A stretch of DNA of 27,865 bases from an uncultured Myxococcales bacterium (GCA_964458295.1 CAYWIG010000001.1:1-27865); one strand, 5' to 3'. Counted from the stretch's first letter, positions 4,789 to 26,051 are shown. Program-made: numbers and translations. The notes: generated by a model from the letters alone, not told the origin.

Positions 4789-4807
4789 TTTTTCCTTATT
4801 AAAATTG

Positions 4808-4879: not shown

Positions 4880-4884
4880 TTATT

Positions 4885-6765: not shown

Positions 6766-6838
6766 ATGAAGTAAAATTTATTAAAGTAATCCTTTTATAG
6801 TAAATTATAGGTGTAAAAACTCATTGCTGGAGGGGAAG

Positions 6839-7585: not shown

Positions 7586-7623
7586 CCCAAGCAAGCGGTT
7601 TTGTTTGGGGATGACTTTCCTCC

Positions 7624-7652
7624 TTGACATTTGCGTGGTCACCCACTATAAG
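7624..7652 (+). promoter_or_regulatory. Sigma70-type promoter of the pyr operon
   Basis: TTGACA (7624-7629), 17 bp spacer, TATAAG (7647-7652). Confidence 0.7.
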
Positions 7653-7706
7653 CCCACGAAATTCAAGGGAAAATGATATGGACAGGGTTAAATAAAGCTA
7701 TGAAAC

Positions 7707-7742
7707 AAGCCTTCTTGCCACCGGCAGGAGGGCTTTTTTTTT
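7707..7742 (+). terminator. Intrinsic terminator / attenuator in the pyrR leader
   Basis: gccttcttgcc-acc-ggcaggagggc stem (11 bp including G-U pairs) followed by 9 T, between the promoter and the pyrR RBS. Confidence 0.8.
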
Positions 7743-7757
7743 GAGGAGATTAAAGCC

Positions 7758-8288
7758 ATGGAAATGAAAGTTAAGGATTTGATGAGTGAGGAGCAGATGG
7801 ATCGGGCTATCCTGGATGTCGCCAAGGAGATAGTCACCGATGGCACGAACAATGTGGCGCTGGTCGGCATCAAGACGAGGGGGGTTCCGCTCGCAAAGTG
7901 GCTCGCCAAGAAGATCGAGGCGGTGCAGCACAAGCCGATAGACATGGGATCGATCGACATCTCCCTGTATAGGGATGATCTATCGGAGATCGAGGATCAG
8001 GCGATCGTTAAGAAGTCGGAACTGCCTTTTTCGGTGACCGGGCGTGGAATCATCCTGGTAGACGATGTTCTCTATACAGGCAGGACGATCAGGGCTGCGA
8101 TGGATGCGATCATAGACCATGGCAGGCCTAAATTCATCAAGCTCATGGTGATGATCGACAGGGGATGGCGCGAGCTTCCGATCCAGGCTGACTATGTGGG
8201 CAAAAATCTCAAGACCAAGGCGAACGAGAACGTCAAGGTACGCTTCAACGAGACCGATGAGATTAATCAAATCGTGGTGAAGGGATAG
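7758..8288 (+). CDS. pyrR: PyrR, pyrimidine regulator / uracil phosphoribosyltransferase
   Basis: VGIKTRG, DISLYRDD, ILVDDVLYTGRTIRAA, DRGWRELPIQADYVG. Confidence 0.96.
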   Translation: MEMKVKDLMSEEQMDRAILDVAKEIVTDGTNNVALVGIKTRGVPLAKWLAKKIEAVQHKPIDMGSIDISLYRDDLSEIEDQAIVKKSELPFSVTGRGIILVDDVLYTGRTIRAAMDAIIDHGRPKFIKLMVMIDRGWRELPIQADYVGKNLKTKANENVKVRFNETDEINQIVVKG

Positions 8289-8291
8289 GAT

Positions 8292-9287
8292 ATGTCAAAA
8301 GAGATCTTTCATGTGCTCAGGTCAGACCAGTTCGACAGGAATTTTTTGGATGAGCTGTATGATATAACGAATAAGCTTAGAAAAATATCCCGCACGAAGC
8401 GGGGGAGCAATTATCTTCAGACACTTATCTCGGACAAGAGGGCGATGCTCTACTTTACGCAGCCCTCCACAAGAACCTTCCTTTCATTCCTAAATGCGTG
8501 TCAGATTCTGGGTATTCAGACTTCAGAGATCAGGGATCCGAATACGTCGTCGGAGATGAAGGGTGAGACCGCCGACGATGCGATTCGAACGTTCAGCAGC
8601 TATGTCGATCTGATCATCATGAGATCGCCGCAAGCGGGTTTGGCGGACAAGATTGCAAAGCTCCTCGATGAAACACCTAGGAGGGTTCCGATTATAAACG
8701 GCGGTTCAGGAAAGGATGAGCATCCGACGCAGGCGCTTCTTGATATCTATACTTTGAAAAGATCGTTCGGTAAGACGGGCGGCGACATCGACGGCAAGAA
8801 GATTGCGATGGTAGGTGATGTAAAGCGAGGAAGGACGGTGCGGTCGCTGAGTAGACTGATGAAACATTTCAAGGACACGGAGATTGTCTTCGTCTCTCCA
8901 GAAACCTTGAGGATCGCCGACGATCTTCGTGAAGATCTAAAGAAGAACAACGTTAAGTTCGAGGAGACCACGGACTTCGAGAAGGTTATCCCCGAGGTTG
9001 ATGCGATATATATGACGAGAATCCAAGACGAGTACGATGAGAAGGGGGAGTCTGACGAACTGGATTACACAAAGTATCATTTCAACTACGATCATCTGAA
9101 AATTCTGAAGAAGGAAGCGATCATAATGCATCCACTGCCTAGACGTATGGAGATCGACGTTGAGGTCGATGCCGATCCCAGAGCGAAGTACTGGAGGCAG
9201 GAGCGAAACGGCATGTGGACACGCGTCGCATTGATCGCCAAGGTCTTCGGTTTGGATAAGGATATTACTGAGCCGTATGGAATTTAG
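8292..9287 (+). CDS. pyrB: Aspartate carbamoyltransferase catalytic subunit
   Basis: PSTRT, EHPTQALLD, GRTVRSL, YMTRIQ, MHPLPR. Confidence 0.95.
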   Translation: MSKEIFHVLRSDQFDRNFLDELYDITNKLRKISRTKRGSNYLQTLISDKRAMLYFTQPSTRTFLSFLNACQILGIQTSEIRDPNTSSEMKGETADDAIRTFSSYVDLIIMRSPQAGLADKIAKLLDETPRRVPIINGGSGKDEHPTQALLDIYTLKRSFGKTGGDIDGKKIAMVGDVKRGRTVRSLSRLMKHFKDTEIVFVSPETLRIADDLREDLKKNNVKFEETTDFEKVIPEVDAIYMTRIQDEYDEKGESDELDYTKYHFNYDHLKILKKEAIIMHPLPRRMEIDVEVDADPRAKYWRQERNGMWTRVALIAKVFGLDKDITEPYGI

Positions 9288-9308
9288 CTAAAGCAGGAAA
9301 AAAATGGG

Positions 9309-9376
9309 ATGCCAGATACCTGATGCCAGAAAAAATAACTATTTCTGCTGGCATCTGGGATCCGGTATCCGGCATC
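9309..9376. repeat. Heptamer-periodic imperfect palindrome (ATGCCAG / CTGGCAT)
   Basis: atgccag atacctg atgccag, 18-bp spacer, ctggcat ctgggat ccggtat ccggcat; same family as 6682-6765. Confidence 0.75.
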
Positions 9377-9382
9377 AACTCT

Positions 9383-10660
9383 ATGAAAAAAGACAAATTG
9401 ATCACGGCCATCACAAACGGATCGATTGTTGATCCTTCTGGAAAACTCTCAGGTCAAACTAACATCTTCATCGAAAACGGTCTCATCTCCGAAATCAGCG
9501 ATAGAGCTCCGACCTCCTCTGAAGGAGTGCTGAATGCCGAAGGCCTATGCGTTTCTCCAGGATTTATCGACCTGCATGTTCACCTTCGGGAGCCCGGTTA
9601 TGAATATAAGGAGGATATTGAATCGGGGAGCAGGGCAGCCATCGCCGGTGGCTTTACGACGATAGTCTGTATGCCGAACACGAAACCGGTCAACGACTGC
9701 GCGGAGATTACGAAAAAAATCGTTTCACGGGCGAGGGAGGTTGGACTTGCTAACGTACTCCCCGTCGGAGCCATGACCGTCGGTCTCAAGGGTGAAAGGA
9801 TTCCTGATTACGACGCAATGGTGGAGGCAGGTATAGTTGCCATATCAGATGACGGTAGCTGTATTCAGGATGAGACTGTTGCGAGAGAGGTGTTTTCAAT
9901 AGCGGCGGAGAAGGGCATCTTGATAACGAGTCATCCTGAAATGCATTCTCTGAATAATAATGGCGTTATAAATGATGGGCAGTATTCTCGAGTAAATAAA
10001 ATTCCTGGTATTCCTCGTTCGGCCGAAAATGAAGCGATTGCAAGGGATGTTGAACTTGTGAGGGATACCGGTGCGAGGCTCCATATAGGACATGTGAGTA
10101 CGAAGGAGGGTATAGAATACGTAAGACAGGCGAAGGCGGAATCACTGCCTGTTACATGCGAGGTGACTCCGCATCATCTGTTACTTACGGAGAGTGATAT
10201 CGATGAGTATGGGGCGAATGCAAAGATGAATCCTCCACTTCGAAACGAGGAGGATCGACTTGCATTGATAGGAGGTTTGCAGGATGGAACGGTCGACGCA
10301 ATTGCAACCGATCATGCCCCGCATGCGAAGGATGAGAAGAAGGATCTCTTGAGCGCACCCTTTGGTGTGATCGGTATGGAGACGGCATTTTCGGTATGTA
10401 TGTTACTCGTGGATGAGGAGTACATCGACATCGAACGATTGATCGAGCTGTTCACGAAATCACCATCTAAAATATTCAGTTTGAATAGGGGCACGATCTC
10501 CGTGGGTGCCGTGGCAGATTTAGTCATATTCGAGAAAGACTCGCTGTTTAAGATCGATCCCTCCAAATTCCAGTCCAAGGCCAGAAATACCCCTTTCGAT
10601 GGTTGGGAGGTGCCGGTGCAGATTATGCATACCGTCGTGGGTGGTAAAGTAGTCCTTTAA
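9383..10660 (+). CDS. pyrC: Dihydroorotase (type I, multifunctional-complex type)
   Basis: PGFIDLHVHLREPG, GGFTT..CMPNT, CEVTPHHL, KMNPPLR, IATDHAPH. Start moved to MKKDK (9383) because the track's N-terminal extension is the translated repeat. Confidence 0.95.
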   Translation: MKKDKLITAITNGSIVDPSGKLSGQTNIFIENGLISEISDRAPTSSEGVLNAEGLCVSPGFIDLHVHLREPGYEYKEDIESGSRAAIAGGFTTIVCMPNTKPVNDCAEITKKIVSRAREVGLANVLPVGAMTVGLKGERIPDYDAMVEAGIVAISDDGSCIQDETVAREVFSIAAEKGILITSHPEMHSLNNNGVINDGQYSRVNKIPGIPRSAENEAIARDVELVRDTGARLHIGHVSTKEGIEYVRQAKAESLPVTCEVTPHHLLLTESDIDEYGANAKMNPPLRNEEDRLALIGGLQDGTVDAIATDHAPHAKDEKKDLLSAPFGVIGMETAFSVCMLLVDEEYIDIERLIELFTKSPSKIFSLNRGTISVGAVADLVIFEKDSLFKIDPSKFQSKARNTPFDGWEVPVQIMHTVVGGKVVL

Positions 10661-13259: not shown

Positions 13260-14168
13260 ATGACCGATAAGAATAAGCAAAATAAGAAGAGGGGGAGCAC
13301 TTCACGAGAACTCGTCCGCCGCGATCCTCTGCAGAGTTATATGCAGGAGGTGAAGAACTATCCGATGCTCTCATTGGAGGAGGAGCATGAGTTGGCGAAG
13401 AAATTTCATGATGAAGGTGATCTCGAAGCTGCGAAGAAGCTAGTAGCGACACACCTTCGTCTGGTTGCGAAGATTGCGATGGAGTATCGAAGCGCCTATC
13501 ACAATGTCCTGGATCTCATTCAGGAGGGCAATGTTGGTCTTCTGCAGGCGGTCAAAAACTATGATCCAAAGAAGGGTGCCAGACTCGCCCATTATGCGAC
13601 GTGGTGGATCAAATCCTACATCTTAAAGTATATTCTAGATAACTTTCGCCTGATAAAGATCGGAACCACCAAGGAGCAAAAGAAGCTCTTCTACAATCTC
13701 ATGCGCGAGAAGGAGAAGATCGAGGCGATGGGATACTATGCAACACCTGTAGAGCTATCGAAGCGCCTTGGCGTCAGCGAAAAGGCCGTAGAGGAGATGC
13801 AGAAAAGGCTTACAGAGCCGGAATATGCCCTTGAAGCCCCAATTAAAGGCGACTCTGGCGATGGTGGGGCCATTCTAAAGGACTTCCTGCCGATCGACGA
13901 GATGCCTGTCGATGATAGAATAGCTGAACAGCAGACGCAGGATATCCTGAAACAGAAGTTTAAGGAGTTTTCGAAGTCACTCGATGACAGGGAGCTCAAG
14001 ATCTTCCAGGAGCGACTCCTTTCAGAACTTCCTTTAACACTTCAGGAAATTGCAGGTGAATATGGAATATCGAAGGAGAGGGTGAGGCAATTGGAGGAGC
14101 GCCTTATTAAGCGACTTAAGAAGTTTTTTAAGGATAGTGGTATTGAGGTGGAAGCACTTAAGATGTGA
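13260..14168 (+). CDS. rpoH: RNA polymerase sigma-32 family factor
   Basis: LRLVAKIA, DLIQEGNVGL, YATWWIK, RpoH-box-like TTKEQKKLFYNL, ISKERVRQLE. Confidence 0.88.
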   Translation: MTDKNKQNKKRGSTSRELVRRDPLQSYMQEVKNYPMLSLEEEHELAKKFHDEGDLEAAKKLVATHLRLVAKIAMEYRSAYHNVLDLIQEGNVGLLQAVKNYDPKKGARLAHYATWWIKSYILKYILDNFRLIKIGTTKEQKKLFYNLMREKEKIEAMGYYATPVELSKRLGVSEKAVEEMQKRLTEPEYALEAPIKGDSGDGGAILKDFLPIDEMPVDDRIAEQQTQDILKQKFKEFSKSLDDRELKIFQERLLSELPLTLQEIAGEYGISKERVRQLEERLIKRLKKFFKDSGIEVEALKM

Positions 14169-14205
14169 TTACTATCATTATATAGATGGGGAGATAAAAC
14201 AATAA

Positions 14206-14233
14206 ACCGGACATAATCTACCTACTCAGACAT
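14206..14233. other. Left junction: hybrid dif-like site (ACCGGACATAA TCTACC TACTCAGACAT)
   Basis: The 11-bp arm reads TTATGTCCGGT on the minus strand (XerD-arm-like) and marks the exact start of the duplicated unit. Confidence 0.55.
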
Positions 14234-14277
14234 CAAACAATAAAACAGGAGTAGGGGGCGTGAGGGGCGATTTAAAC

Positions 14278-14550
14278 TCAGGCAGCTTTGCCCTTAAATA
14301 CCACTTTTTCTAATTCCTCAAGTCGCTGAAGGATCCCTTTCTTATCATCGAGAAGAATATCTCTGAGTATTTTGTTTAGCAGCGTTTGATATTTTCCGCC
14401 GCTTTTCTCAGCCATTTCACGCAGAACCTCAAGCACCTCTTCATCCAGGTAGGTCGTCACCTTGATCTTTGAGCCTTTGAGTTCTTTCTTAGAGAGTTTG
14501 GGACCCTTTATTTTCTTCATCTTATCTGGATCAGGAATTTTCTTTTTCAT
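14278..14550 (-). CDS. brnA: BrnA-type (ribbon-helix-helix) antitoxin
   Basis: KVTTYLDEEVL..GKYQTLLNKILR; GGAGG before MKKK at 14550; overlaps the toxin gene. Confidence 0.8.
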   Translation of the reverse strand: MKKKIPDPDKMKKIKGPKLSKKELKGSKIKVTTYLDEEVLEVLREMAEKSGGKYQTLLNKILRDILLDDKKGILQRLEELEKVVFKGKAA

Positions 14551-14812
14551 AATATTTCCTCCATTTCCGCCAGTTCGCCGCACCATAAATTCTTATAACC
14601 TTCTTGCGGAAGGTGTATCGTACGGTAATAATATTTCCTGAAGTAACCTTACCCACGGCATAGAATCGATCCTCTTCGGAAGAGTGCTCCTCATCTTCGA
14701 GATGTATGACCTTGGGATCAGCAAAAACCTCCATGGCCTCGCGGAAATTGACGCCGTGCTTGGCTATGTTATCCAGTTCTTTCCGCTCATCCCATTCAAA
14801 CGTATAGCTCAT
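14531..14812 (-). CDS. brnT: BrnT-type toxin
   Basis: FEWDERKELDNIAKHGVNF, HSSEEDRFYAVG, TVRYTFR..IRIYGA. Confidence 0.88.
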   Translation of the reverse strand: MSYTFEWDERKELDNIAKHGVNFREAMEVFADPKVIHLEDEEHSSEEDRFYAVGKVTSGNIITVRYTFRKKVIRIYGAANWRKWRKYYEKENS

Positions 14813-14818
14813 GATCAT

Positions 14819-14857
14819 ATTATACATATATTATATGTATATTGTCAATATATATGT
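14819..14857 (-). promoter_or_regulatory. brnTA promoter with palindromic operators
   Basis: Minus strand TTGACA (14848-14843), 18 bp, TATAAT (14824-14819); overlapping palindromes tacatat-att-atatgta and tattg-t-caata. Confidence 0.7.
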
Positions 14858-15027
14858 AGAGTGATATGAAAGGACAGTTTAATAACTACATGATATTACT
14901 TGTATAAACATAAATGTACCCATAAGGTGGTTCTAAGAAGTAATTTTGCATGTAACTTAAAAAACGAGCAACAAATTTATGGAATGTGCGATAAAGGATA
15001 CAAATGTATGAATAAGAGGAGATGATT

Positions 15028-16083
15028 ATGAGCGGAGCTACAATTAATCCAGGATTACAATTCATTAATACGGCGGGTGTACCAGGGCTTGTTAGTGGCA
15101 TACAAACCGGTATGATTCAGCCGGCACAAACACTAACTGCATTTCAAGCGGTGGGGAGTGCAATCGATACATATGCTAGTGCATTTCCGCAGGATACAAC
15201 GCTCATGGGTTTGCGTGGCAATATCAGTGGGTTGCCAGCCAATCCACCCATCACTGCCCAGGCACAGGAACAGATTCTTGGTCAGCTAACTCAACATAAG
15301 GATGATGTAGAACTGGCAGTACGCATGGCCGTCAAGATAGGGAATGTAGGTCAGGTTGCAGTTACCGGTGGTGCGGCGTTGATAAATACAGAAGCACCTT
15401 ACGATCTCGGAGCCGAGTGGAGATGGATTCCTGCCGGAACATTTCAATTTGGTTCTGCAGATGATGATCAATACGCATATGATGCTGAAAAGCCACTAAG
15501 ACAGGTGATCGTAGGTGGTTTTTTTATGCTGGATCATCCTGTGACGAATAGAGAATGGATTGCATTTCTCGAGGCTACAGGGGAAAGGGATGAGCGAGAC
15601 ATTTCAAAGAAGTTTTCGGGACTCGATCAACCGGCGGTTTTGATCAATCATCCAGAGGCAAGCCGATATGCAGAGTGGCTAGGTTCGCAAGTAAGCGCAC
15701 AGGTAGAACAAAGCGTCATCGGACGGCTCCCAACTGAGCAGGAGTGGGAGAGGGCTGCCAAGGGTCCGGACGGAAATGAATTTATAACTCCAGCAACGAG
15801 CAGGCAAGCTCACTTCGATTCGGATAGAACGAGGGCGGTTACAGATCCCGAAGCATATGTAAATGGATTTGGACTGAAGGATATGATCGGTAACGTATGG
15901 GAGTGGACATCGAGCCCATGGGCAGAGGGATCGAGTGCGTTTGTGCTTCGCGGCGCCTCTTGGGACGACTATAGTCCTCAGTCTCTGCGTGCCGCTTTTC
16001 GCAACTTCAACATTCCGGACGATCGTTTCAGCTTTATCGGCTTCCGTCCGGTGCTGGTTCCCCAGGACCCGAAAAAAAGCTGA
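15028..16083 (+). CDS. DGR target protein 1: unknown N-terminal domain plus FGE-sulfatase/C-type lectin fold with C-terminal VR
   Basis: WIPAGTFQFGS, HPVTNREW, RLPTEQEWERAA, DMIGNVWEW, RGASW..R..GFR; AGGAG before ATG 15028. Confidence 0.93.
   Translation: MSGATINPGLQFINTAGVPGLVSGIQTGMIQPAQTLTAFQAVGSAIDTYASAFPQDTTLMGLRGNISGLPANPPITAQAQEQILGQLTQHKDDVELAVRMAVKIGNVGQVAVTGGAALINTEAPYDLGAEWRWIPAGTFQFGSADDDQYAYDAEKPLRQVIVGGFFMLDHPVTNREWIAFLEATGERDERDISKKFSGLDQPAVLINHPEASRYAEWLGSQVSAQVEQSVIGRLPTEQEWERAAKGPDGNEFITPATSRQAHFDSDRTRAVTDPEAYVNGFGLKDMIGNVWEWTSSPWAEGSSAFVLRGASWDDYSPQSLRAAFRNFNIPDDRFSFIGFRPVLVPQDPKKS
15945..16065 (+). repeat. DGR variable repeat VR1
   Basis: 121-bp ungapped match to TR 19761-19881; 16 mismatches, all opposite TR adenines. 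Confidence 0.97.
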
Positions 16084-16169
16084 TGTAGCCTTTTACCCTT
16101 TGCCTTTTTACCCTTATCCGGATTTAGTATTCCCGAGAAACGATGAGTTTCACTAAGGAGCGTCGGTTT

Positions 16170-16226
16170 ATGAAGCAGGGTGCACCTCAGGTCGTAACAT
16201 CGAAGTATGATCTTCTATGTGAGTAA
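16170..16226 (+). pseudogene. avd: Truncated avd remnant
   Basis: Reads MKQGAPQVVTSKYDLLCE* versus intact MRQGAPQIITSMYDLLLY; same TAAGGAG RBS and upstream spacer as the intact avd. Confidence 0.85.
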
Positions 16227-16248
16227 TGATTGTGAGGGAATATATTAT

Positions 16249-16276
16249 ACCAGACATAATGCACCTACTCAGACAT
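16249..16276. other. Internal dif-like cassette boundary (ACCAGACATAA TGCACC TACTCAGACAT)
   Basis: Both arms identical to those of the site at 20115; the 6-bp spacer differs. Confidence 0.55.
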
Positions 16277-16319
16277 CTAGAAATATAATGGGAGTAGGGG
16301 GGCTGAGAAGCTATTTAAA

Positions 16320-16637
16320 TCAAGCCACCTTCTGTGCATCGATTTCAACTTTGAGTTTTAATCCGAGAGCTTCCAGAAGGGCAAACAGTCTGTCGAGACG
16401 TGGGTTTCCTTTTTCGGAAAGAATCCTATACGCGGTTACGCGGTTGATATGCGCGTCCTTCGCCACCTTGGACATGCTGTATGCCTCTGCTACATGCCGA
16501 AGCGCGATGAGAAGGGCAACGGGATCATCAGATTCCTCAAGCGCTGCGTTGATATAGGATGCTGCCTCGTCAGGATCCTTTAATGATTCTATTAGATATT
16601 CGTTATAATCACCGCTTCTTTTTTTTGCCTTTGCCAT
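16320..16637 (-). CDS. Addiction-module antidote protein (HTH; HigA-like, HI1420 type)
   Basis: EYLIESLKDP..YINAALE, ALRHVAEA..MSKVAKDAHINRVTAYRILSEKGNPRL. Confidence 0.88.
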   Translation of the reverse strand: MAKAKKRSGDYNEYLIESLKDPDEAASYINAALEESDDPVALLIALRHVAEAYSMSKVAKDAHINRVTAYRILSEKGNPRLDRLFALLEALGLKLKVEIDAQKVA

Positions 16638-16956
16638 AGTTTACCTCCAAATAATCGGCCCAATATTTCTTGGCCTTGTTTATATCGTTCTTTTGTGTCC
16701 GTTTCGATCCACCACATAGCAAAAGGACTATCTGTTTTCCATCCCTTCCAAAGTACACCCTGTAACCGGGACCAATATGAATTCTGAGTTCGTTTATACC
16801 TTCAGCAATTGCTTTCGCATCGCCAAATAAGCCCAGTAAAAGACGATCGATGCGTACCTTGATAACAGCGCGTGTACGTGGATCTTTCAAACCTTCCAAC
16901 CAACTCAAAAATGGACTCTTTCCACTTTCCGTTCTGTAATAACGAATATCGATCAC
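16609..16956 (-). CDS. Addiction-module killer protein (RelE/ParE/HigB family toxin)
   Basis: F..WL..LKD..RIDRL..G.FGDAK...GINELRIHIGPGYRVYF, LLLCGGSKRTQKNDI; toxin lies upstream of antitoxin; GTG start. Confidence 0.9.
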   Translation of the reverse strand: MIDIRYYRTESGKSPFLSWLEGLKDPRTRAVIKVRIDRLLLGLFGDAKAIAEGINELRIHIGPGYRVYFGRDGKQIVLLLCGGSKRTQKNDINKAKKYWADYLEVNYGKGKKKKR

Positions 16957-16963
16957 ATTAAGG

Positions 16964-17018
16964 AGTGTAGCATATATGCAACATGTGAGTCAATATGATA
17001 ATGTTGCATATAGGCAAC
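16964..17018 (-). promoter_or_regulatory. TA promoter with two palindromic operators
   Basis: Minus strand TTGACT (16993-16988), 18 bp, TGn-TACACT (16969-16964); near-palindromes GTAGCATATATGCAAC (16967-16982) and GTTGCATATAGGCAAC (17003-17018). Confidence 0.65.
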
Positions 17019-17215
17019 GAATAAGGGTGCTTGCTTGCATTCGTTTGAATTAAAAGCTATGTGACAGATAACTAGCCGATATTATAAGGTAATTTGTGCA
17101 ATTGTTCGTGCAGGATCGTGTAGGGATGATTTTTGAGGTAAATGTTGAAAAATCGAGAAACTTTTTTAGGGAATGTGCGATAAACAGATGTTATTGGAAT
17201 TATACGGAGGTAGTT

Positions 17216-18292
17216 ATGACGGGAACTTCAATTAATCCAGGATTCAATCAAGCGTTTCAATTTATTCAAGGTGTGGGTGTGCCAGGTCTTGTGAGCGGAG
17301 TGAATACGATAATGACTCCCGCACAAACGCTAACCGCATTTCAAGCAGTGGGAAGTGCGATTGATACGTACGTGACGGCGTTTCCGCAGGATGGAACATT
17401 AGTCGGTCTGCGAAGCAGCATCAGTACCTTACCTGCTACGCCGCCTATTTCGGAGCAAGCACAGGAACAAATACTTGGCCAGCTAACTCAGCATAGTGAT
17501 GATGTAGAGTTGGCGGTGCGTATGGCTATCAAGGTAAATACCGTCGGTCAAATTGCGGTCACAGGTGGAGCGGCGACAGTAAATGTCGAAGCACCATTCG
17601 ATCTCGGAGCCGAGTGGAGATGGATTCCAGAAGGATCGTTTATGTTCGGTTCGGCCGACGACGATCCGTATGCATTCAATGATGAGAAACCACAGAGGAT
17701 GATGACTGTGGGTGGCTTTTTTATGTTGGACCATCCTGTCACTAATAAAGACTGGATCGCATTTCTTGAAGCGACAGGTGGAAAGGATGCGCGAGACCTT
17801 TTAGAAAAGTTTGCGGGAATGGATCAGCCGGCGGTTCGGATTAATCATACAGAAGCGAATCAATATGCCCGATGGATCGGTGAACAATTGAGCACAAGTA
17901 AAGGTCAAGCAGTTGCAGGGCGACTTCCGACAGAGATGGAATGGGAAAGGGCGGCCAAGGGACCTGGCGGAGACGAGTTTATAATTCCTGCAACAAGAGA
18001 TCAGGCACATTTCAATGCGGATGGAAAAACGGATAGAACGAGGGCGGTTACGCATCCAGACGTATACAGAAACGGATTTGGACTGGGGGATATTGAAGGA
18101 AATGTATGGGAGTGGACATCAAGCCCATGGGCCAAAGGGTCAGGAACTTTTGTGCTTCGCGGCGCCTCTTGGATCATCTATGATCCTCGGGATCTGCGTG
18201 CCGCTTGTCGCGGCTACAGCAATCCGGGCGCTCGTGACTGCTATTTCGGCTTCCGTCCGGTGCTGGTTCCCCAGGACCCGAAAAAAAGCTGA
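17216..18292 (+). CDS. DGR target protein 2 (paralog of target 1)
   Basis: Same domain layout as target 1; GGAGG at 17206-17210 supports ATG 17216 over the track's 17096. Confidence 0.93.
   Translation: MTGTSINPGFNQAFQFIQGVGVPGLVSGVNTIMTPAQTLTAFQAVGSAIDTYVTAFPQDGTLVGLRSSISTLPATPPISEQAQEQILGQLTQHSDDVELAVRMAIKVNTVGQIAVTGGAATVNVEAPFDLGAEWRWIPEGSFMFGSADDDPYAFNDEKPQRMMTVGGFFMLDHPVTNKDWIAFLEATGGKDARDLLEKFAGMDQPAVRINHTEANQYARWIGEQLSTSKGQAVAGRLPTEMEWERAAKGPGGDEFIIPATRDQAHFNADGKTDRTRAVTHPDVYRNGFGLGDIEGNVWEWTSSPWAKGSGTFVLRGASWIIYDPRDLRAACRGYSNPGARDCYFGFRPVLVPQDPKKS
18154..18274 (+). repeat. DGR variable repeat VR2
   Basis: 121-bp ungapped match to TR; 19 mismatches, all opposite TR adenines. Confidence 0.97.
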
Positions 18293-18379
18293 TGTAAACT
18301 TTTATCCTTTGCTTTTTTACACTTATCCGGATTTTCTATTCTCCGAGAAACGATGAGCTTCACTAAGGAGCGTCGAGTC

Positions 18380-18727
18380 ATGAGGCAGGGTGCACCTCAA
18401 ATTATAACGTCGATGTATGATCTTCTCCTATATCTTGTTCCACAAGTTTCTAAATTTCCAAAATCCCAGCGTTACCTTCTCGGTGAACGGCTGGAATCCG
18501 CGTGCTTCGATGTTCTCGAACTTCTGATCTCCGCGACATATTCTCAAGAGAAGATGCAGGTACTGAATAAGGCCAACATCAGACTCGAACAGGCCCGGTA
18601 CTATGTGAGGCTATGCAAGGATCTGAAACTCTTAAGTCTCCATCGATATGAGGTTGTATCAAAAAAGGTAAACGATGTGGGTGTGCAACTCGGCGGTTGG
18701 CTGAAATCCCAGAGACGGCGCAAATGA
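18380..18727 (+). CDS. avd: DGR accessory variability determinant (bAvd-like four-helix bundle)
   Basis: KFPKSQRYLLGERL, LEQARYYVRLCKDL, VGVQLGGWLK; TAAGGAG RBS; ATGA overlap with the RT gene. Confidence 0.92.
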   Translation: MRQGAPQIITSMYDLLLYLVPQVSKFPKSQRYLLGERLESACFDVLELLISATYSQEKMQVLNKANIRLEQARYYVRLCKDLKLLSLHRYEVVSKKVNDVGVQLGGWLKSQRRRK

Positions 18728-19737
18728 GGCGACATAAAAACCTTTATAAAGAGATAGCATCGTTTAGCAACCTCCTGAAAGCTGCGCGCCTTGCCCAGCG
18801 TGGAAAGCGATATAAAACACCTACGGCACACTTCAATTACTACCTCGAAAATGAATTGTGGCGTCTACATGAAGAATTGGCCACAAAGAAATATAAACCG
18901 GGAAAATATCATCACTTTACAATATATGAGCCAAAGCAGCGCGTGATCAGCGCAGCACCATATAGAGATCGTGTTGTTCATCACGCATTGCACAACGTGC
19001 TAGAGCCGATCTTCGATCCGACTTTCATCTACGATTCGTATGCCACGAGAAAAGGGAAGGGGACGCATGCGGCTCTGGACCGCTTTCAGAGTTTTTCTCG
19101 TCGGTGTAGTTATGCACTGAAGTGCGATATTCAGAAATACTTTCCGAGCATAGATCGTCAGATTCTTATTTCTTTGATCAAAAGAAAGATTGCGTGTGAC
19201 GATACGCTTTGGCTTATGGGTCGGATACTCGAATTTCACGATGGACCGGAAGTTGCGGACAGAGGGATTCCTATAGGGAATTTGACGTCACAGTTTTTTG
19301 CGAACATCTATCTCAACGGACTGGATCACTTCATTAAGCAGGATCTTGTCTGTTCCCATTATCTTCGATACATGGATGATTTTGTGATTTTCGATAACGA
19401 TAAGGATCGCCTTTGGTATCTAAAACAGCTGATCACGGATTATGTTGAAAAACTCAGTCTTCGCCTGCATTCTGATAAATGCTGCGTTTATAAGACATCG
19501 GCAGGTGTTCCTTTTTTTGGTATGATAATCTTTCCGGAACGGCGTCGTCTCAAACGTCAGAATGTGATTAGATTTAAACGTCGATTGAGAAAGTTTCAGC
19601 GAGAATATGAAAATGGCGATGTTAGTTGGGCGCATATCAATCAATCCATTCAATCTTGGATAGGGCATGCTTTGCATGCTGAGACTGCACGTTTGAGAGG
19701 GGATATTTTGTCGAATACAGTCTTTAGAAAGGGGTGA
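18724..19737 (+). CDS. DGR reverse transcriptase
   Basis: KQRVISAAPYRDRVVHHAL, LKCDIQKYFPSI, GIPIGNLTSQFFANIYL (SQ motif typical of DGR RTs), YLRYMDDF; about 337 aa with no maturase or endonuclease domain. Confidence 0.96.
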   Translation: MRRHKNLYKEIASFSNLLKAARLAQRGKRYKTPTAHFNYYLENELWRLHEELATKKYKPGKYHHFTIYEPKQRVISAAPYRDRVVHHALHNVLEPIFDPTFIYDSYATRKGKGTHAALDRFQSFSRRCSYALKCDIQKYFPSIDRQILISLIKRKIACDDTLWLMGRILEFHDGPEVADRGIPIGNLTSQFFANIYLNGLDHFIKQDLVCSHYLRYMDDFVIFDNDKDRLWYLKQLITDYVEKLSLRLHSDKCCVYKTSAGVPFFGMIIFPERRRLKRQNVIRFKRRLRKFQREYENGDVSWAHINQSIQSWIGHALHAETARLRGDILSNTVFRKG

Positions 19738-19760
19738 TCGATCACAGTAAACGGGTTCCA

Positions 19761-19881
19761 GCTTCGCGGCGCCTCTTGGAACAACAATAATCCTCAGAAT
19801 CTGCGTGCCGCTTATCGCAACAACAACAATCCGGACGAACGTAACAACAATATCGGCTTCCGTCCGGTGCTGGTTCCCCAG
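19761..19881 (+). ncRNA. DGR template repeat (TR)
   Basis: Non-coding, 24 nt after the RT stop; 12 AAY codons in target frame; matches both VRs except at adenines. Confidence 0.96.
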
Positions 19882-20029
19882 CACCCCAAGGTGCAATCTT
19901 GCAGGCCAGAGTCCTTTTTTTTAAGGAAACGGGGAGAGTGTTCCGTAGAGTTTTCTGCGGGACGTGCCAGCGAGGGGTCCAGGTCGATCATCCCGGTTTG
20001 CCAAAATAGGTGGGCCAAAGATAGCGGGG

Positions 20030-20090
20030 CTCCATCCGTCACTCGTAACTGCATATCCAATGTAGCGAGCGTGATGGATGGGGATTTTTT
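20030..20090 (+). terminator. Long hairpin plus T-tract ending the putative DGR RNA
   Basis: ctccatccgtcac...ctgcat-atcca-atgtag...gtgatggatgggg followed by atttttt. Confidence 0.65.
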
Positions 20091-20114
20091 AAGGTTCGAC
20101 AATAGACATGTTAT

Positions 20115-20142
20115 ACCAGACATAATCTACCTACTCAGACAT
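20115..20142. other. Unit junction dif-like site (ACCAGACATAA TCTACC TACTCAGACAT)
   Basis: Sits exactly at the copy 1 / copy 2 junction. Confidence 0.55.
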
Positions 20143-20186
20143 CAAACAATAAAACAGGAGTAGGGGGCGTGAGGGGCGATTTAAAC

Positions 20187-20459
20187 TCAGGCAGCTTTGC
20201 CCTTAAATACCACTTTTTCTAATTCCTCAAGTCGCTGAAGGATCCCTTTCTTATCATCGAGAAGAATATCTCTGAGTATTTTGTTTAGCAGCGTTTGATA
20301 TTTTCCGCCGCTTTTCTCAGCCATTTCACGCAGAACCTCAAGCACCTCTTCATCCAGGTAGGTCGTCACCTTGATCTTTGAGCCTTTGAGTTCTTTCTTA
20401 GAGAGTTTGGGACCCTTTATTTTCTTCATCTTATCTGGATCAGGAATTTTCTTTTTCAT
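20187..20459 (-). CDS. brnA: BrnA-type antitoxin, copy 2
   Basis: Identical to 14278-14550. Confidence 0.8.
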   Translation of the reverse strand: MKKKIPDPDKMKKIKGPKLSKKELKGSKIKVTTYLDEEVLEVLREMAEKSGGKYQTLLNKILRDILLDDKKGILQRLEELEKVVFKGKAA

Positions 20460-20721
20460 AATATTTCCTCCATTTCCGCCAGTTCGCCGCACCATAAATT
20501 CTTATAACCTTCTTGCGGAAGGTGTATCGTACGGTAATAATATTTCCTGAAGTAACCTTACCCACGGCATAGAATCGATCCTCTTCGGAAGAGTGCTCCT
20601 CATCTTCGAGATGTATGACCTTGGGATCAGCAAAAACCTCCATGGCCTCGCGGAAATTGACGCCGTGCTTGGCTATGTTATCCAGTTCTTTCCGCTCATC
20701 CCATTCAAACGTATAGCTCAT
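20440..20721 (-). CDS. brnT: BrnT-type toxin, copy 2
   Basis: Identical to 14531-14812. Confidence 0.88.
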   Translation of the reverse strand: MSYTFEWDERKELDNIAKHGVNFREAMEVFADPKVIHLEDEEHSSEEDRFYAVGKVTSGNIITVRYTFRKKVIRIYGAANWRKWRKYYEKENS

Positions 20722-20936
20722 GATCATATTATACATATATTATATGTATATTGTCAATATATATGTAGAGTGATATGAAAGGACAGTTTAATAACTACAT
20801 GATATTACTTGTATAAACATAAATGTACCCATAAGGTGGTTCTAAGAAGTAATTTTGCATGTAACTTAAAAAACGAGCAACAAATTTATGGAATGTGCGA
20901 TAAAGGATACAAATGTATGAATAAGAGGAGATGATT

Positions 20937-21992
20937 ATGAGCGGAGCTACAATTAATCCAGGATTACAATTCATTAATACGGCGGGTGTACCAGGGCTTG
21001 TTAGTGGCATACAAACCGGTATGATTCAGCCGGCACAAACACTAACTGCATTTCAAGCGGTGGGGAGTGCAATCGATACATATGCTAGTGCATTTCCGCA
21101 GGATACAACGCTCATGGGTTTGCGTGGCAATATCAGTGGGTTGCCAGCCAATCCACCCATCACTGCCCAGGCACAGGAACAGATTCTTGGTCAGCTAACT
21201 CAACATAAGGATGATGTAGAACTGGCAGTACGCATGGCCGTCAAGATAGGGAATGTAGGTCAGGTTGCAGTTACCGGTGGTGCGGCGTTGATAAATACAG
21301 AAGCACCTTACGATCTCGGAGCCGAGTGGAGATGGATTCCTGCCGGAACATTTCAATTTGGTTCTGCAGATGATGATCAATACGCATATGATGCTGAAAA
21401 GCCACTAAGACAGGTGATCGTAGGTGGTTTTTTTATGCTGGATCATCCTGTGACGAATAGAGAATGGATTGCATTTCTCGAGGCTACAGGGGAAAGGGAT
21501 GAGCGAGACATTTCAAAGAAGTTTTCGGGACTCGATCAACCGGCGGTTTTGATCAATCATCCAGAGGCAAGCCGATATGCAGAGTGGCTAGGTTCGCAAG
21601 TAAGCGCACAGGTAGAACAAAGCGTCATCGGACGGCTCCCAACTGAGCAGGAGTGGGAGAGGGCTGCCAAGGGTCCGGACGGAAATGAATTTATAACTCC
21701 AGCAACGAGCAGGCAAGCTCACTTCGATTCGGATAGAACGAGGGCGGTTACAGATCCCGAAGCATATGTAAATGGATTTGGACTGAAGGATATGATCGGT
21801 AACGTATGGGAGTGGACATCGAGCCCATGGGCAGAGGGATCGAGTGCGTTTGTGCTTCGCGGCGCCTCTTGGGACGACTATAGTCCTCAGTCTCTGCGTG
21901 CCGCTTTTCGCAACTTCAACATTCCGGACGATCGTTTCAGCTTTATCGGCTTCCGTCCGGTGCTGGTTCCCCAGGACCCGAAAAAAAGCTGA
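20937..21992 (+). CDS. DGR target protein 1, copy 2
   Basis: Identical translation to 15028-16083. Confidence 0.93.
   Translation: MSGATINPGLQFINTAGVPGLVSGIQTGMIQPAQTLTAFQAVGSAIDTYASAFPQDTTLMGLRGNISGLPANPPITAQAQEQILGQLTQHKDDVELAVRMAVKIGNVGQVAVTGGAALINTEAPYDLGAEWRWIPAGTFQFGSADDDQYAYDAEKPLRQVIVGGFFMLDHPVTNREWIAFLEATGERDERDISKKFSGLDQPAVLINHPEASRYAEWLGSQVSAQVEQSVIGRLPTEQEWERAAKGPDGNEFITPATSRQAHFDSDRTRAVTDPEAYVNGFGLKDMIGNVWEWTSSPWAEGSSAFVLRGASWDDYSPQSLRAAFRNFNIPDDRFSFIGFRPVLVPQDPKKS
21854..21974 (+). repeat. VR1, copy 2
   Basis: Identical to 15945-16065. Confidence 0.95.
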
Positions 21993-22078
21993 TGTAGCCT
22001 TTTACCCTTTGCCTTTTTACCCTTATCCGGATTTAGTATTCCCGAGAAACGATGAGTTTCACTAAGGAGCGTCGGTTT

Positions 22079-22135
22079 ATGAAGCAGGGTGCACCTCAGG
22101 TCGTAACATCGAAGTATGATCTTCTATGTGAGTAA
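22079..22135 (+). pseudogene. avd: Truncated avd remnant, copy 2
   Basis: Identical to 16170-16226. Confidence 0.85.
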
Positions 22136-22157
22136 TGATTGTGAGGGAATATATTAT

Positions 22158-22185
22158 ACCAGACATAATGCACCTACTCAGACAT
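22158..22185. other. Internal dif-like cassette boundary, copy 2
   Basis: Identical to 16249-16276. Confidence 0.55.
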
Positions 22186-22228
22186 CTAGAAATATAATGG
22201 GAGTAGGGGGGCTGAGAAGCTATTTAAA

Positions 22229-22546
22229 TCAAGCCACCTTCTGTGCATCGATTTCAACTTTGAGTTTTAATCCGAGAGCTTCCAGAAGGGCAAACAGTCT
22301 GTCGAGACGTGGGTTTCCTTTTTCGGAAAGAATCCTATACGCGGTTACGCGGTTGATATGCGCGTCCTTCGCCACCTTGGACATGCTGTATGCCTCTGCT
22401 ACATGCCGAAGCGCGATGAGAAGGGCAACGGGATCATCAGATTCCTCAAGCGCTGCGTTGATATAGGATGCTGCCTCGTCAGGATCCTTTAATGATTCTA
22501 TTAGATATTCGTTATAATCACCGCTTCTTTTTTTTGCCTTTGCCAT
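22229..22546 (-). CDS. Addiction-module antidote protein, copy 2
   Basis: Identical to 16320-16637. Confidence 0.88.
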   Translation of the reverse strand: MAKAKKRSGDYNEYLIESLKDPDEAASYINAALEESDDPVALLIALRHVAEAYSMSKVAKDAHINRVTAYRILSEKGNPRLDRLFALLEALGLKLKVEIDAQKVA

Positions 22547-22865
22547 AGTTTACCTCCAAATAATCGGCCCAATATTTCTTGGCCTTGTTTATATCGTTCT
22601 TTTGTGTCCGTTTCGATCCACCACATAGCAAAAGGACTATCTGTTTTCCATCCCTTCCAAAGTACACCCTGTAACCGGGACCAATATGAATTCTGAGTTC
22701 GTTTATACCTTCAGCAATTGCTTTCGCATCGCCAAATAAGCCCAGTAAAAGACGATCGATGCGTACCTTGATAACAGCGCGTGTACGTGGATCTTTCAAA
22801 CCTTCCAACCAACTCAAAAATGGACTCTTTCCACTTTCCGTTCTGTAATAACGAATATCGATCAC
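22518..22865 (-). CDS. RelE/HigB-family toxin, copy 2
   Basis: Identical to 16609-16956. Confidence 0.9.
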   Translation of the reverse strand: MIDIRYYRTESGKSPFLSWLEGLKDPRTRAVIKVRIDRLLLGLFGDAKAIAEGINELRIHIGPGYRVYFGRDGKQIVLLLCGGSKRTQKNDINKAKKYWADYLEVNYGKGKKKKR

Positions 22866-23124
22866 ATTAAGGAGTGTAGCATATATGCAACATGTGAGTC
22901 AATATGATAATGTTGCATATAGGCAACGAATAAGGGTGCTTGCTTGCATTCGTTTGAATTAAAAGCTATGTGACAGATAACTAGCCGATATTATAAGGTA
23001 ATTTGTGCAATTGTTCGTGCAGGATCGTGTAGGGATGATTTTTGAGGTAAATGTTGAAAAATCGAGAAACTTTTTTAGGGAATGTGCGATAAACAGATGT
23101 TATTGGAATTATACGGAGGTAGTT

Positions 23125-24201
23125 ATGACGGGAACTTCAATTAATCCAGGATTCAATCAAGCGTTTCAATTTATTCAAGGTGTGGGTGTGCCAGGTCTTG
23201 TGAGCGGAGTGAATACGATAATGACTCCCGCACAAACGCTAACCGCATTTCAAGCAGTGGGAAGTGCGATTGATACGTACGTGACGGCGTTTCCGCAGGA
23301 TGGAACATTAGTCGGTCTGCGAAGCAGCATCAGTACCTTACCTGCTACGCCGCCTATTTCGGAGCAAGCACAGGAACAAATACTTGGCCAGCTAACTCAG
23401 CATAGTGATGATGTAGAGTTGGCGGTGCGTATGGCTATCAAGGTAAATACCGTCGGTCAAATTGCGGTCACAGGTGGAGCGGCGACAGTAAATGTCGAAG
23501 CACCATTCGATCTCGGAGCCGAGTGGAGATGGATTCCAGAAGGATCGTTTATGTTCGGTTCGGCCGACGACGATCCGTATGCATTCAATGATGAGAAACC
23601 ACAGAGGATGATGACTGTGGGTGGCTTTTTTATGTTGGACCATCCTGTCACTAATAAAGACTGGATCGCATTTCTTGAAGCGACAGGTGGAAAGGATGCG
23701 CGAGACCTTTTAGAAAAGTTTGCGGGAATGGATCAGCCGGCGGTTCGGATTAATCATACAGAAGCGAATCAATATGCCCGATGGATCGGTGAACAATTGA
23801 GCACAAGTAAAGGTCAAGCAGTTGCAGGGCGACTTCCGACAGAGATGGAATGGGAAAGGGCGGCCAAGGGACCTGGCGGAGACGAGTTTATAATTCCTGC
23901 AACAAGAGATCAGGCACATTTCAATGCGGATGGAAAAACGGATAGAACGAGGGCGGTTACGCATCCAGACGTATACAGAAACGGATTTGGACTGGGGGAT
24001 ATTGAAGGAAATGTATGGGAGTGGACATCAAGCCCATGGGCCAAAGGGTCAGGAACTTTTGTGCTTCGCGGCGCCTCTTGGATCATCTATGATCCTCGGG
24101 ATCTGCGTGCCGCTTGTCGCGGCTACAGCAATCCGGGCGCTCGTGACTGCTATTTCGGCTTCCGTCCGGTGCTGGTTCCCCAGGACCCGAAAAAAAGCTG
24201 A
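23125..24201 (+). CDS. DGR target protein 2, copy 2
   Basis: Identical translation to 17216-18292. Confidence 0.93.
   Translation: MTGTSINPGFNQAFQFIQGVGVPGLVSGVNTIMTPAQTLTAFQAVGSAIDTYVTAFPQDGTLVGLRSSISTLPATPPISEQAQEQILGQLTQHSDDVELAVRMAIKVNTVGQIAVTGGAATVNVEAPFDLGAEWRWIPEGSFMFGSADDDPYAFNDEKPQRMMTVGGFFMLDHPVTNKDWIAFLEATGGKDARDLLEKFAGMDQPAVRINHTEANQYARWIGEQLSTSKGQAVAGRLPTEMEWERAAKGPGGDEFIIPATRDQAHFNADGKTDRTRAVTHPDVYRNGFGLGDIEGNVWEWTSSPWAKGSGTFVLRGASWIIYDPRDLRAACRGYSNPGARDCYFGFRPVLVPQDPKKS
24063..24183 (+). repeat. VR2, copy 2
   Basis: Identical to 18154-18274. Confidence 0.95.
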
Positions 24202-24288
24202 TGTAAACTTTTATCCTTTGCTTTTTTACACTTATCCGGATTTTCTATTCTCCGAGAAACGATGAGCTTCACTAAGGAGCGTCGAGTC

Positions 24289-24636
24289 ATGAGGCAGGGT
24301 GCACCTCAAATTATAACGTCGATGTATGATCTTCTCCTATATCTTGTTCCACAAGTTTCTAAATTTCCAAAATCCCAGCGTTACCTTCTCGGTGAACGGC
24401 TGGAATCCGCGTGCTTCGATGTTCTCGAACTTCTGATCTCCGCGACATATTCTCAAGAGAAGATGCAGGTACTGAATAAGGCCAACATCAGACTCGAACA
24501 GGCCCGGTACTATGTGAGGCTATGCAAGGATCTGAAACTCTTAAGTCTCCATCGATATGAGGTTGTATCAAAAAAGGTAAACGATGTGGGTGTGCAACTC
24601 GGCGGTTGGCTGAAATCCCAGAGACGGCGCAAATGA
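24289..24636 (+). CDS. avd: Avd, copy 2
   Basis: Identical to 18380-18727. Confidence 0.92.
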   Translation: MRQGAPQIITSMYDLLLYLVPQVSKFPKSQRYLLGERLESACFDVLELLISATYSQEKMQVLNKANIRLEQARYYVRLCKDLKLLSLHRYEVVSKKVNDVGVQLGGWLKSQRRRK

Positions 24637-25646
24637 GGCGACATAAAAACCTTTATAAAGAGATAGCATCGTTTAGCAACCTCCTGAAAGCTGCGCGCCT
24701 TGCCCAGCGTGGAAAGCGATATAAAACACCTACGGCACACTTCAATTACTACCTCGAAAATGAATTGTGGCGTCTACATGAAGAATTGGCCACAAAGAAA
24801 TATAAACCGGGAAAATATCATCACTTTACAATATATGAGCCAAAGCAGCGCGTGATCAGCGCAGCACCATATAGAGATCGTGTTGTTCATCACGCATTGC
24901 ACAACGTGCTAGAGCCGATCTTCGATCCGACTTTCATCTACGATTCGTATGCCACGAGAAAAGGGAAGGGGACGCATGCGGCTCTGGACCGCTTTCAGAG
25001 TTTTTCTCGTCGGTGTAGTTATGCACTGAAGTGCGATATTCAGAAATACTTTCCGAGCATAGATCGTCAGATTCTTATTTCTTTGATCAAAAGAAAGATT
25101 GCGTGTGACGATACGCTTTGGCTTATGGGTCGGATACTCGAATTTCACGATGGACCGGAAGTTGCGGACAGAGGGATTCCTATAGGGAATTTGACGTCAC
25201 AGTTTTTTGCGAACATCTATCTCAACGGACTGGATCACTTCATTAAGCAGGATCTTGTCTGTTCCCATTATCTTCGATACATGGATGATTTTGTGATTTT
25301 CGATAACGATAAGGATCGCCTTTGGTATCTAAAACAGCTGATCACGGATTATGTTGAAAAACTCAGTCTTCGCCTGCATTCTGATAAATGCTGCGTTTAT
25401 AAGACATCGGCAGGTGTTCCTTTTTTTGGTATGATAATCTTTCCGGAACGGCGTCGTCTCAAACGTCAGAATGTGATTAGATTTAAACGTCGATTGAGAA
25501 AGTTTCAGCGAGAATATGAAAATGGCGATGTTAGTTGGGCGCATATCAATCAATCCATTCAATCTTGGATAGGGCATGCTTTGCATGCTGAGACTGCACG
25601 TTTGAGAGGGGATATTTTGTCGAATACAGTCTTTAGAAAGGGGTGA
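24633..25646 (+). CDS. DGR reverse transcriptase, copy 2
   Basis: Identical to 18724-19737. Confidence 0.96.
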   Translation: MRRHKNLYKEIASFSNLLKAARLAQRGKRYKTPTAHFNYYLENELWRLHEELATKKYKPGKYHHFTIYEPKQRVISAAPYRDRVVHHALHNVLEPIFDPTFIYDSYATRKGKGTHAALDRFQSFSRRCSYALKCDIQKYFPSIDRQILISLIKRKIACDDTLWLMGRILEFHDGPEVADRGIPIGNLTSQFFANIYLNGLDHFIKQDLVCSHYLRYMDDFVIFDNDKDRLWYLKQLITDYVEKLSLRLHSDKCCVYKTSAGVPFFGMIIFPERRRLKRQNVIRFKRRLRKFQREYENGDVSWAHINQSIQSWIGHALHAETARLRGDILSNTVFRKG

Positions 25647-25669
25647 TCGATCACAGTAAACGGGTTCCA

Positions 25670-25790
25670 GCTTCGCGGCGCCTCTTGGAACAACAATAAT
25701 CCTCAGAATCTGCGTGCCGCTTATCGCAACAACAACAATCCGGACGAACGTAACAACAATATCGGCTTCCGTCCGGTGCTGGTTCCCCAG
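25670..25790 (+). ncRNA. DGR template repeat, copy 2
   Basis: Identical to 19761-19881. Confidence 0.96.
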
Positions 25791-25938
25791 CACCCCAAGG
25801 TGCAATCTTGCAGGCCAGAGTCCTTTTTTTTAAGGAAACGGGGAGAGTGTTCCGTAGAGTTTTCTGCGGGACGTGCCAGCGAGGGGTCCAGGTCGATCAT
25901 CCCGGTTTGCCAAAATAGGTGGGCCAAAGATAGCGGGG

Positions 25939-25999
25939 CTCCATCCGTCACTCGTAACTGCATATCCAATGTAGCGAGCGTGATGGATGGGGATTTTTT
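25939..25999 (+). terminator. Hairpin plus T-tract, copy 2
   Basis: Identical to 20030-20090. Confidence 0.65.
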
Positions 26000-26023
26000 A
26001 AGGTTCGACAATAGACATGTTAT

Positions 26024-26051
26024 ACCAGACATAATATATCTTATACGTCTT
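26024..26051 (-). other. Complete dif-like XerC/XerD site (minus strand AAGACGTATAA GATATA TTATGTCTGGT)
   Basis: 11-6-11 layout with ATAA-n6-TTAT core; 17/28 identical to E. coli dif by my alignment; marks the island's right end. Confidence 0.65.

Follow-up and report, generated by a model that had tools for sequence, protein, structure and literature searches.

The window analysed here, a 27,865-nucleotide stretch of one strand from an uncultured marine Myxococcales bacterium (GCA_964458295.1 CAYWIG010000001.1:1-27865), contains a reverse transcriptase (RT) gene, the accessory gene avd, a template repeat (TR), and two paralogous target genes ending in variable repeats (VR1 and VR2). Do these parts form a complete diversity-generating retroelement (DGR), has it been active recently, and how did it come to lie, in duplicate, beside a chromosomal dif site? 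The element is a canonical avd-RT-TR DGR. The locus as a whole is very probably best explained as a canonical, recently active DGR carried in stacked dif-bounded cassettes, in which stacking by Xer recombination and service of one target in trans would be the conjectural parts. Coordinates of the features are collected in Table 1.

Parts of a canonical DGR of the order avd-RT-TR

The TR holds 31 adenines and, read in the frame of the targets, 12 AAY codons. All 35 mismatches between the TR and the two VRs (16 for VR1 and 19 for VR2) fall on TR adenines. The probability that every mismatch would by chance fall on 31 adenines among 121 sites is 8e-12 for VR1 and 2e-14 for VR2. Codon positions 1 or 2 hold 30 of the 31 TR adenines, a stop codon cannot be reached by any A-to-N change in the TR, and the 18 variable codons allow about 7e17 possible protein variants. 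VR1 and VR2 are identical at all non-adenine sites (90/90), whereas identity between the target genes upstream of the VRs is only 71% (73% over the last 60 nt). An earlier note, made from the sequence alone, had given the same adenine and AAY codon counts, the same numbers of mismatches with none outside adenines, the lack of a reachable stop codon in the target frame, and the divergence of the two targets immediately upstream of VRs that are perfect at non-adenine sites; our recount and recomputation agree with it on each of these. A TR/VR mismatch outside adenines, the observation that the earlier note had named as fatal to its claim, was looked for in the alignments of the TR with VR1 and VR2, and none was found.

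The first non-adenine differences are located just 3' of the TR, at 19882 and 19887, where C on the TR side corresponds to G in both VRs. This pattern fits a putative asymmetry of the IMH/IMH* type (initiation of mutagenic homing). RNA folding of the TR region gives z = -2.2, which is not decisive, and an Rfam search of 14000-20300 (E up to 1) returned zero matches. No further TR-like match was found in the metagenome-assembled genome (MAG) beyond this contig, so remote targets were not found. The open reading frames (ORFs) over the TR spacer (19812-20123 minus, 19867-20163 plus and 19420-19896 minus) and the one at 16207-16557 have no Pfam match and are therefore probably not genes.

The RT is encoded in an ORF (18697-19737) that matches Pfam RVT_1. 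Translation most likely begins at an ATG (18724) that overlaps with the stop codon of avd in the sequence ATGA. The best PDB match of the RT is 8ub7 (E = 5e-57), with group II intron RTs following at 4e-23; 8ub7, a 328-aa RT, we take to be the bRT of Bordetella phage BPP-1. Sequence identity to phage DGR RTs ranges from 37% (Bordetella phage RT, over 96% of the length) to 43% (Vibrio phage VP585). The two signatures of the DGR clade of RTs, [ILV]GxxxSQ in motif 4 and the YxDD box, are both present, as GIPIGNLTSQ and YMDD. A PDB sequence search with Avd gave zero matches.

In both target proteins the PF03781 domain reaches the C-terminus. The longest ORF of target 2 starts at 17096, and its ATG at 17216 aligns with the start of target 1. 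The N-terminal domains of the targets (about 130 residues, encoded by 15028-15410 and 17216-17600) are seen in 7 protein clusters (among 5.8 billion), in each case joined to the FGE domain, and had no match in the Atlas. The AlphaFold model of the target is poor (pLDDT 46.6), the N-terminal helices alone being moderately confident. A fold search with the N-domain matched only generic helical bundles (Z up to 5.7), and therefore no function is assigned to it. No export signal was seen in the sequences of the target proteins. With a DGR-type RT, a bAvd protein, two FGE/C-type-lectin targets bearing C-terminal VRs and one TR all in place, the identification of the locus as a complete DGR in the earlier note stands.

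We envisage the following cycle. The TR would presumably be transcribed along with avd and RT. A complex of RT and Avd would reverse-transcribe it, misincorporating at random opposite adenines, and the resulting cDNA would replace the 3' 121 nt of both FGE/C-type-lectin genes. The codons recoded in this way would make up the presumed ligand-binding surface of the targets.

Variable repeat alleles in other samples and repeat tracts in related RT genes

To follow the VRs beyond the window, Logan contigs of four marine runs (X1, X2, X4 and X6) were aligned to window positions 13600-20200; five independent ENA/JGI contigs (L015-L019) served as a second data set. A second VR2 allele, present in X1, X2 and X6 and shared by all five ENA/JGI contigs, differs from the window at 21 positions, 21/21 being TR adenines. 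X4 exhibits a third VR2 allele (13/14 differences at TR adenines), and a second VR1 allele is found in X2 and L016 (12/13). Pooled over the alternative alleles, 46/48 variant sites are at TR adenines. The TR is invariant, and the non-VR bases of L015, L016, L018 and L019 exhibit 0 differences in 19,358. Since the VR alleles differ at TR adenines on an identical background, they show that mutagenic retrohoming took place very recently. The alleles arose after the background became identical, whether in different cells or in different copies of the array. This is in line with the earlier note, which held that both VRs had recently been rewritten from the same TR and had suggested examining whether VR variation is confined to TR adenines; the pooled count above is the outcome of that examination, made on contigs. 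X4 also contains a contig of a related, different DGR, aligning with skips and loose ends to the 3' part of the RT gene and the TR (near 18952-19833), so some of the X4 VR variants may stem from a sister strain. In L016 and X2, a T>G change at 15961 turns the conserved tryptophan of LRGASW into glycine (W311G).

Orthologs of the RT, 57-73% identical to that of the window, carry a tract of 4-, 7- or 8-nt repeats at one codon position; a conserved TTGCA precedes the tract, and the GIPIGNLTSQ codons follow it directly. All RT genes of this kind examined at the DNA level have the tract except two internally deleted ones (L139 and L153). Some full-length proteins of the clade exhibit short repeat-free loops in its place, and the window RT likewise has a short loop free of repeats. 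The tract is out of frame in seven lineages and in frame in three. Out-of-frame tracts are (AGCC)9-10 in G002 and G038, (ATCC)15 in G004, (ATCC)6 in L127, (AATC)12 in L055, an 8-mer repeated four times in G015 and a 7-mer repeated three times in L125 and L126. In-frame tracts are (CCAG)7 in G007, (ACCG)6 in L195 and (ATCC)7 in L196 and L197; they translate to PASQ, PTDR and HPSI repeats, which are also seen in many full-length database proteins. The contigs in question are L008 (G007), L010/L066 (G002), L009/L054 (G038), L011 (G015), L012 (G004), L055, L125-L127 and L195-L197. No tract occupies this site in any of about 110 RTs that are more distant, and 0 matches came from a scan of metagenomes for the pattern (AGCC)4 beside IPIG codons. 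Within lineages no change of tract length was seen, the lengths being equal in the pairs L125/L126 and L196/L197.

These tracts look like a slipped-strand ON/OFF switch that may act on the DGR of the relatives; our literature search found no paper on such RT repeat switches. Non-adenine TR/VR mismatches amount to 18/118 in relatives with out-of-frame RTs versus 1/53 in L195 (in frame) and the window together (Fisher p = 0.008). A single RT clade offers here a natural comparison of a tract-free RT having clean, adenine-only VRs with repeat-interrupted RTs having more non-adenine drift. The two internally deleted genes, both on metagenome contigs, have lost approximately residues 179-300 including the catalytic region, and are decayed copies. 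In L195 (a JGI 3300027835 contig), the target-avd-RT DGR at 3459-9956 adjoins squalene/phytoene synthase and amine oxidase genes. The window DGR adjoins the squalene-hopene cyclase gene shc, and the two neighbourhoods may be conserved.

Tandem cassettes beside a chromosomal dif site

The 28-mer at 26024-26051 is the true chromosomal dif, and the array adjoins it. The site is identified as dif because it is mostly single-copy, is conserved over two families, and marks a flip of GC skew and gene strand. A 26-mer of the site (up to 3 mismatches) was found in 11 of 23 relatives belonging to two families, mostly once per genome, and it is the point where, in G013, G010 and G001, the sign of both GC skew and coding-strand bias is reversed. 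dif is known to lie at the terminus defined by such a sign change of skew and strand (PMC5357621). From left to right the array reads dif*-A-dif*-B-dif*-A-dif*-B-dif, dif* being a dif-like site. Cassette A (2.0 kb) consists of a BrnTA pair, target 1 and an avd stub; cassette B (3.9 kb) of a HigBA-like pair, target 2, avd, RT and TR. Each bears at its end a conserved element of about 80 nt. All five cassette boundaries (flank/A, A/B, B/A, A/B and B/dif) share the core ACC(A/G)GACATAAT, each on the same 12-bp arm of dif; the leftmost core has a private G and the others have A. No recombinase gene was found in the cassettes by Pfam. The MAG encodes four tyrosine recombinases outside the cassettes, two of which are Xer-sized (311-312 aa), with no XerC or XerD type assigned. 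Upstream of BrnT there is a sigma-70 consensus promoter (14848-14819 minus, 12/12, TTGACA-18-TATAAT) directed away from target 1; it was the only 12/12 match in a promoter and terminator pattern scan whose counts were not above those of shuffles.

Relatives show other states of the same site. In G005 the arrangement is empty, pyrC-sig70-dif-shc. In G001, a member of the same genus, one cassette (a Fic/HTH, i.e. helix-turn-helix, gene and a target with 79% identity to target 1) lies between the same sites, with both boundaries on the dif arm. The VR-like stretch of this cassette has 24 mismatches to the TR of the window, 21 of them at adenines; the non-adenine mismatches are 3/90 versus about 21% divergence elsewhere in the locus. 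This MAG is 95% complete, and neither RT nor avd nor TR was found in it. The G001 cassette is located on L028/L185 (G001:C106) at 5760-8313. No paper that connects DGRs to Xer, dif or integrative mobile elements exploiting Xer (IMEX) came up in a literature search.

The segment 14210-20126 equals 20119-26035 exactly, giving a tandem of period 5909 bp (14210-26035). By virtue of this exact repeat the window holds four VRs, two TRs, two RT genes and two avd genes, and the interval 15028-20090, to which the earlier note had assigned the DGR, covers a single copy within an array of dif-bounded cassettes arranged in tandem. X1 and X2 contigs that were built separately contain the back-joint 20118>14210; since independent contigs carry it, the B-to-A junction is real. 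L015 (5964 bp, i.e. 5909+55) and L018 (6028 bp, i.e. 5909+119) are closed cycles with k-sized terminal overlaps. Contig ends (L016 from 14210, L018 to 26035, the left-flank contigs L020 and L021 to 14264) coincide with the expected branch points of the assembly graph. The unit is present in at least two tandem copies. A plasmid identity of the 5.9-kb cycle was rejected, for it has no replication gene and its flanks are chromosomal. A 2209-bp "cycle" (L017) was dropped as a third circular form, as it joins target 2 to the downstream sequence of target 1 via the common 3' end of the VRs. This ENA scaffold (SAMN11854489, 2264 bp, i.e. 2209+55) runs from target 2 and its VR into target 1 downstream sequence (179/179 identical); it is a chimera of the assembly or else a genuine recombinant of the two paralogs.

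As the best-fitting mechanism we infer Xer-mediated stacking with out-of-register duplication. Xer-type recombination between dif and dif-like sites would stack the cassettes and duplicate them exactly, whether sister chromosomes exchange out of register or a circle is excised and then integrates again. The private G in the leftmost core and the element-type A in the rightmost one are what a crossover within the site would be expected to leave. The target of cassette A would be served in trans by the RT and TR of cassette B, and the toxin-antitoxin (TA) pairs would stabilise the cassettes. We tentatively advance a wider, joint proposal, somewhat doubtful as a whole: that recombinase-less cassettes are stacked by the host Xer at dif, B being a TA-stabilised, self-contained diversifier and A a satellite target served in trans; that copy-number change by Xer may yield extra, independently diversifying VRs; and that the RT may derive from a clade otherwise gated by slippery repeats while itself lacking a tract and being permanently ON. 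If Xer recombination does move the units, it would provide DGR mobility and copy-number change without phage, plasmid or integrase.

How do other explanations fare? That the element is a fossil, with old VR/TR differences and retrohoming ended, appears very improbable: the VRs are indeed identical between the two assembled copies and a single VR2 allele is dominant in five contigs from several samples, but at least three VR2 and at least two VR1 alleles stand over the unchanged background, nearly all their variant sites being TR adenines, RT, avd and TR are all intact, and non-adenine TR/VR mismatches are zero here versus the significantly higher count in relatives with an out-of-frame RT. One might also suppose a single integrated unit accompanied by an excised 5.9-kb circle, or by an assembler loop, the contig having traversed the graph cycle twice. 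The unit does form a closed cycle in L015 and L018, a circle junction and a tandem junction are the same in sequence, and both copies assembled in a short-read MAG have identical VRs. We nevertheless regard this as unlikely, given that the junction is present in independent contigs, that contigs end at both boundaries in one sample (flank-to-unit and unit-to-unit edges coexist), that cassette depth is roughly 1.3-4x flank depth, and that the unit has no plasmid replication gene, although none of these points fixes the copy number.

The tandem itself could be ascribed to unequal homologous or microhomology-mediated recombination, the dif-like cores being incidental. All five boundaries of the array and both of the G001 cassette are on the same 12-bp dif arm, and the private G on the left versus the element-type A on the right fits a crossover inside the site, which makes this origin rather improbable in our opinion, even though the outer junctions share only 8-15 bp, homologous exchange could have used the roughly 80-nt repeats at the cassette ends, and the action of Xer at this locus is itself putative. 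Several points do weigh against a recently active DGR in Xer-stacked cassettes, the explanation we prefer. The source genome is a short-read MAG (371 contigs, 79% complete), and contigs, not raw reads, were compared, which leaves rare variants and the true copy number invisible. The identical VRs of the two assembled copies may reflect the assembler walking one graph path twice. Two variant sites, 15961 and 18184, are T>G changes at non-adenine positions. A strong hairpin is absent 3' of the VRs, where the DNA hairpins are weak (z = -1.4 and -2.1). Among 22 relatives the cassette-end element was found in G001 only; with the element confined to one genus, wider mobility is not supported.

Table 1. 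Features of the DGR cassette array, in window coordinates
Feature	Position	Strand	Remarks
Left cassette-end element	14203-14288	+	dif-like core ACCGGACATAAT (14206-14217, G variant), then about 70 nt of conserved sequence
BrnA-type antitoxin	14278-14586	-	Pfam PF14384
BrnT-type toxin	14531-14827	-	Pfam PF04365, E = 6e-20
Target gene 1	15028-16083	+	orphan helical N-domain and FGE-sulfatase/C-type-lectin domain, Pfam PF03781, E = 5e-41
VR1	15945-16065	+	16 mismatches to TR, each at a TR adenine
IMH-like 3' flank of VR1	16066-16087	+	same sequence in VR2; two C/G positions differ from TR
avd 5' stub	16143-16216	+	homologous to the beginning of avd over 25 codons, beyond which stop codons follow
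Cassette-end element between A and B	16246-16322	+	core ACCAGACATAAT at 16249-16260
HigA-like HTH antidote (HI1420 family)	16320-16637	-	Pfam PF21716
Gp49/HigB-like toxin	16609-16956	-	Pfam PF05973, E = 9e-5, weak match
Target gene 2	17216-18292	+	paralog of target 1; Pfam PF03781, E = 1e-34
VR2	18154-18274	+	19 mismatches to TR, each at a TR adenine
avd accessory gene	18353-18727	+	Pfam bAvd PF22296, E = 5e-20
DGR reverse transcriptase (RT)	18724-19737	+	GIPIGNLTSQ and YMDD motifs; no repeat tract
Template repeat (TR)	19761-19881	+	121 nt; same in all independent contigs
Long hairpin followed by T-run	20032-20090	+	end of TR spacer; likely terminator of the avd-RT-TR transcript
dif-like site	20115-20142	+	junction of the 5909-bp copies
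Second identical unit copy	20119-26035	+	VR1 21854-21974, VR2 24063-24183, avd 24262-24636, RT 24633-25646, TR 25670-25790
Full chromosomal dif	26024-26051	+	28 bp; ACCAGACATAA-TATATC-TTATACGTCTT, 11-6-11 architecture

Comparison with known systems

The avd-RT-TR order corresponds to Architecture B2 of Wu et al. 2018 (PMC5758913). Their survey found two targets in 13% of the DGRs and targets of FGE type in 19%; it also describes unrelated ORFs nested among the components of a DGR (PMC5758913). The DGR core is an ordinary member of its class, since this architecture is published and two targets are common; the gene order target-avd-RT-TR, which the earlier note had set against that of BPP-1, is not unusual. 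The locus resembles the Architecture B2 FGE-sulfatase DGRs, for example that of TvpA in Treponema denticola, in core order, target class, number of targets and nested ORFs (PMC5758913). It departs from the surveyed DGRs in its dif-like-bounded cassettes and in the exact duplication of the whole DGR, which are undescribed there (PMC5758913). The core is one more well-supported, naturally active example of a class with thousands of members, useful and unsurprising.

Compared with the DGR of phage BPP-1 (mtd-avd-TR-brt), the locus has the same combination of Avd, RT and TR with a C-terminal VR in a protein of C-type-lectin fold, the same adenine-only mutagenesis from an AAY-rich TR, and a 3' difference of putative IMH/IMH* type. 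Unlike in BPP-1, the TR is 3' of the RT gene, the setting is chromosomal rather than phage, both of the two targets combine a lectin domain of FGE type with an orphan N-domain, and no clear hairpin follows the VRs. The RT tracts of the relatives recall simple-sequence contingency loci in having in-frame and out-of-frame lengths at one position. They differ from such loci in that tract lengths are equal in both contig pairs and that the window RT is intact and tract-free.

The new aspect of this locus is the packaging of a known type of DGR core in dif-bounded, TA-bearing, tandemly duplicated cassettes. Its striking part is that a hypermutation machine and an extra target are placed in TA cassettes stacked and duplicated at the replication terminus. 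Like IMEX (the gonococcal genetic island GGI of Neisseria, and the TLC, VGJ and CTX phages of Vibrio), the cassettes have no recombinase of their own, reside at dif and are flanked by dif and a degenerate dif keeping one arm, and tandem stacking occurs in both (PMC5357621). Unlike IMEX and the pdif modules of Acinetobacter, the cassettes are small, carry a DGR and its targets as cargo, have an end element of about 80 nt, and were found in one genus only. TA genes are common cargo of Acinetobacter pdif modules, and the cassettes described here resemble these modules in carrying TA genes.

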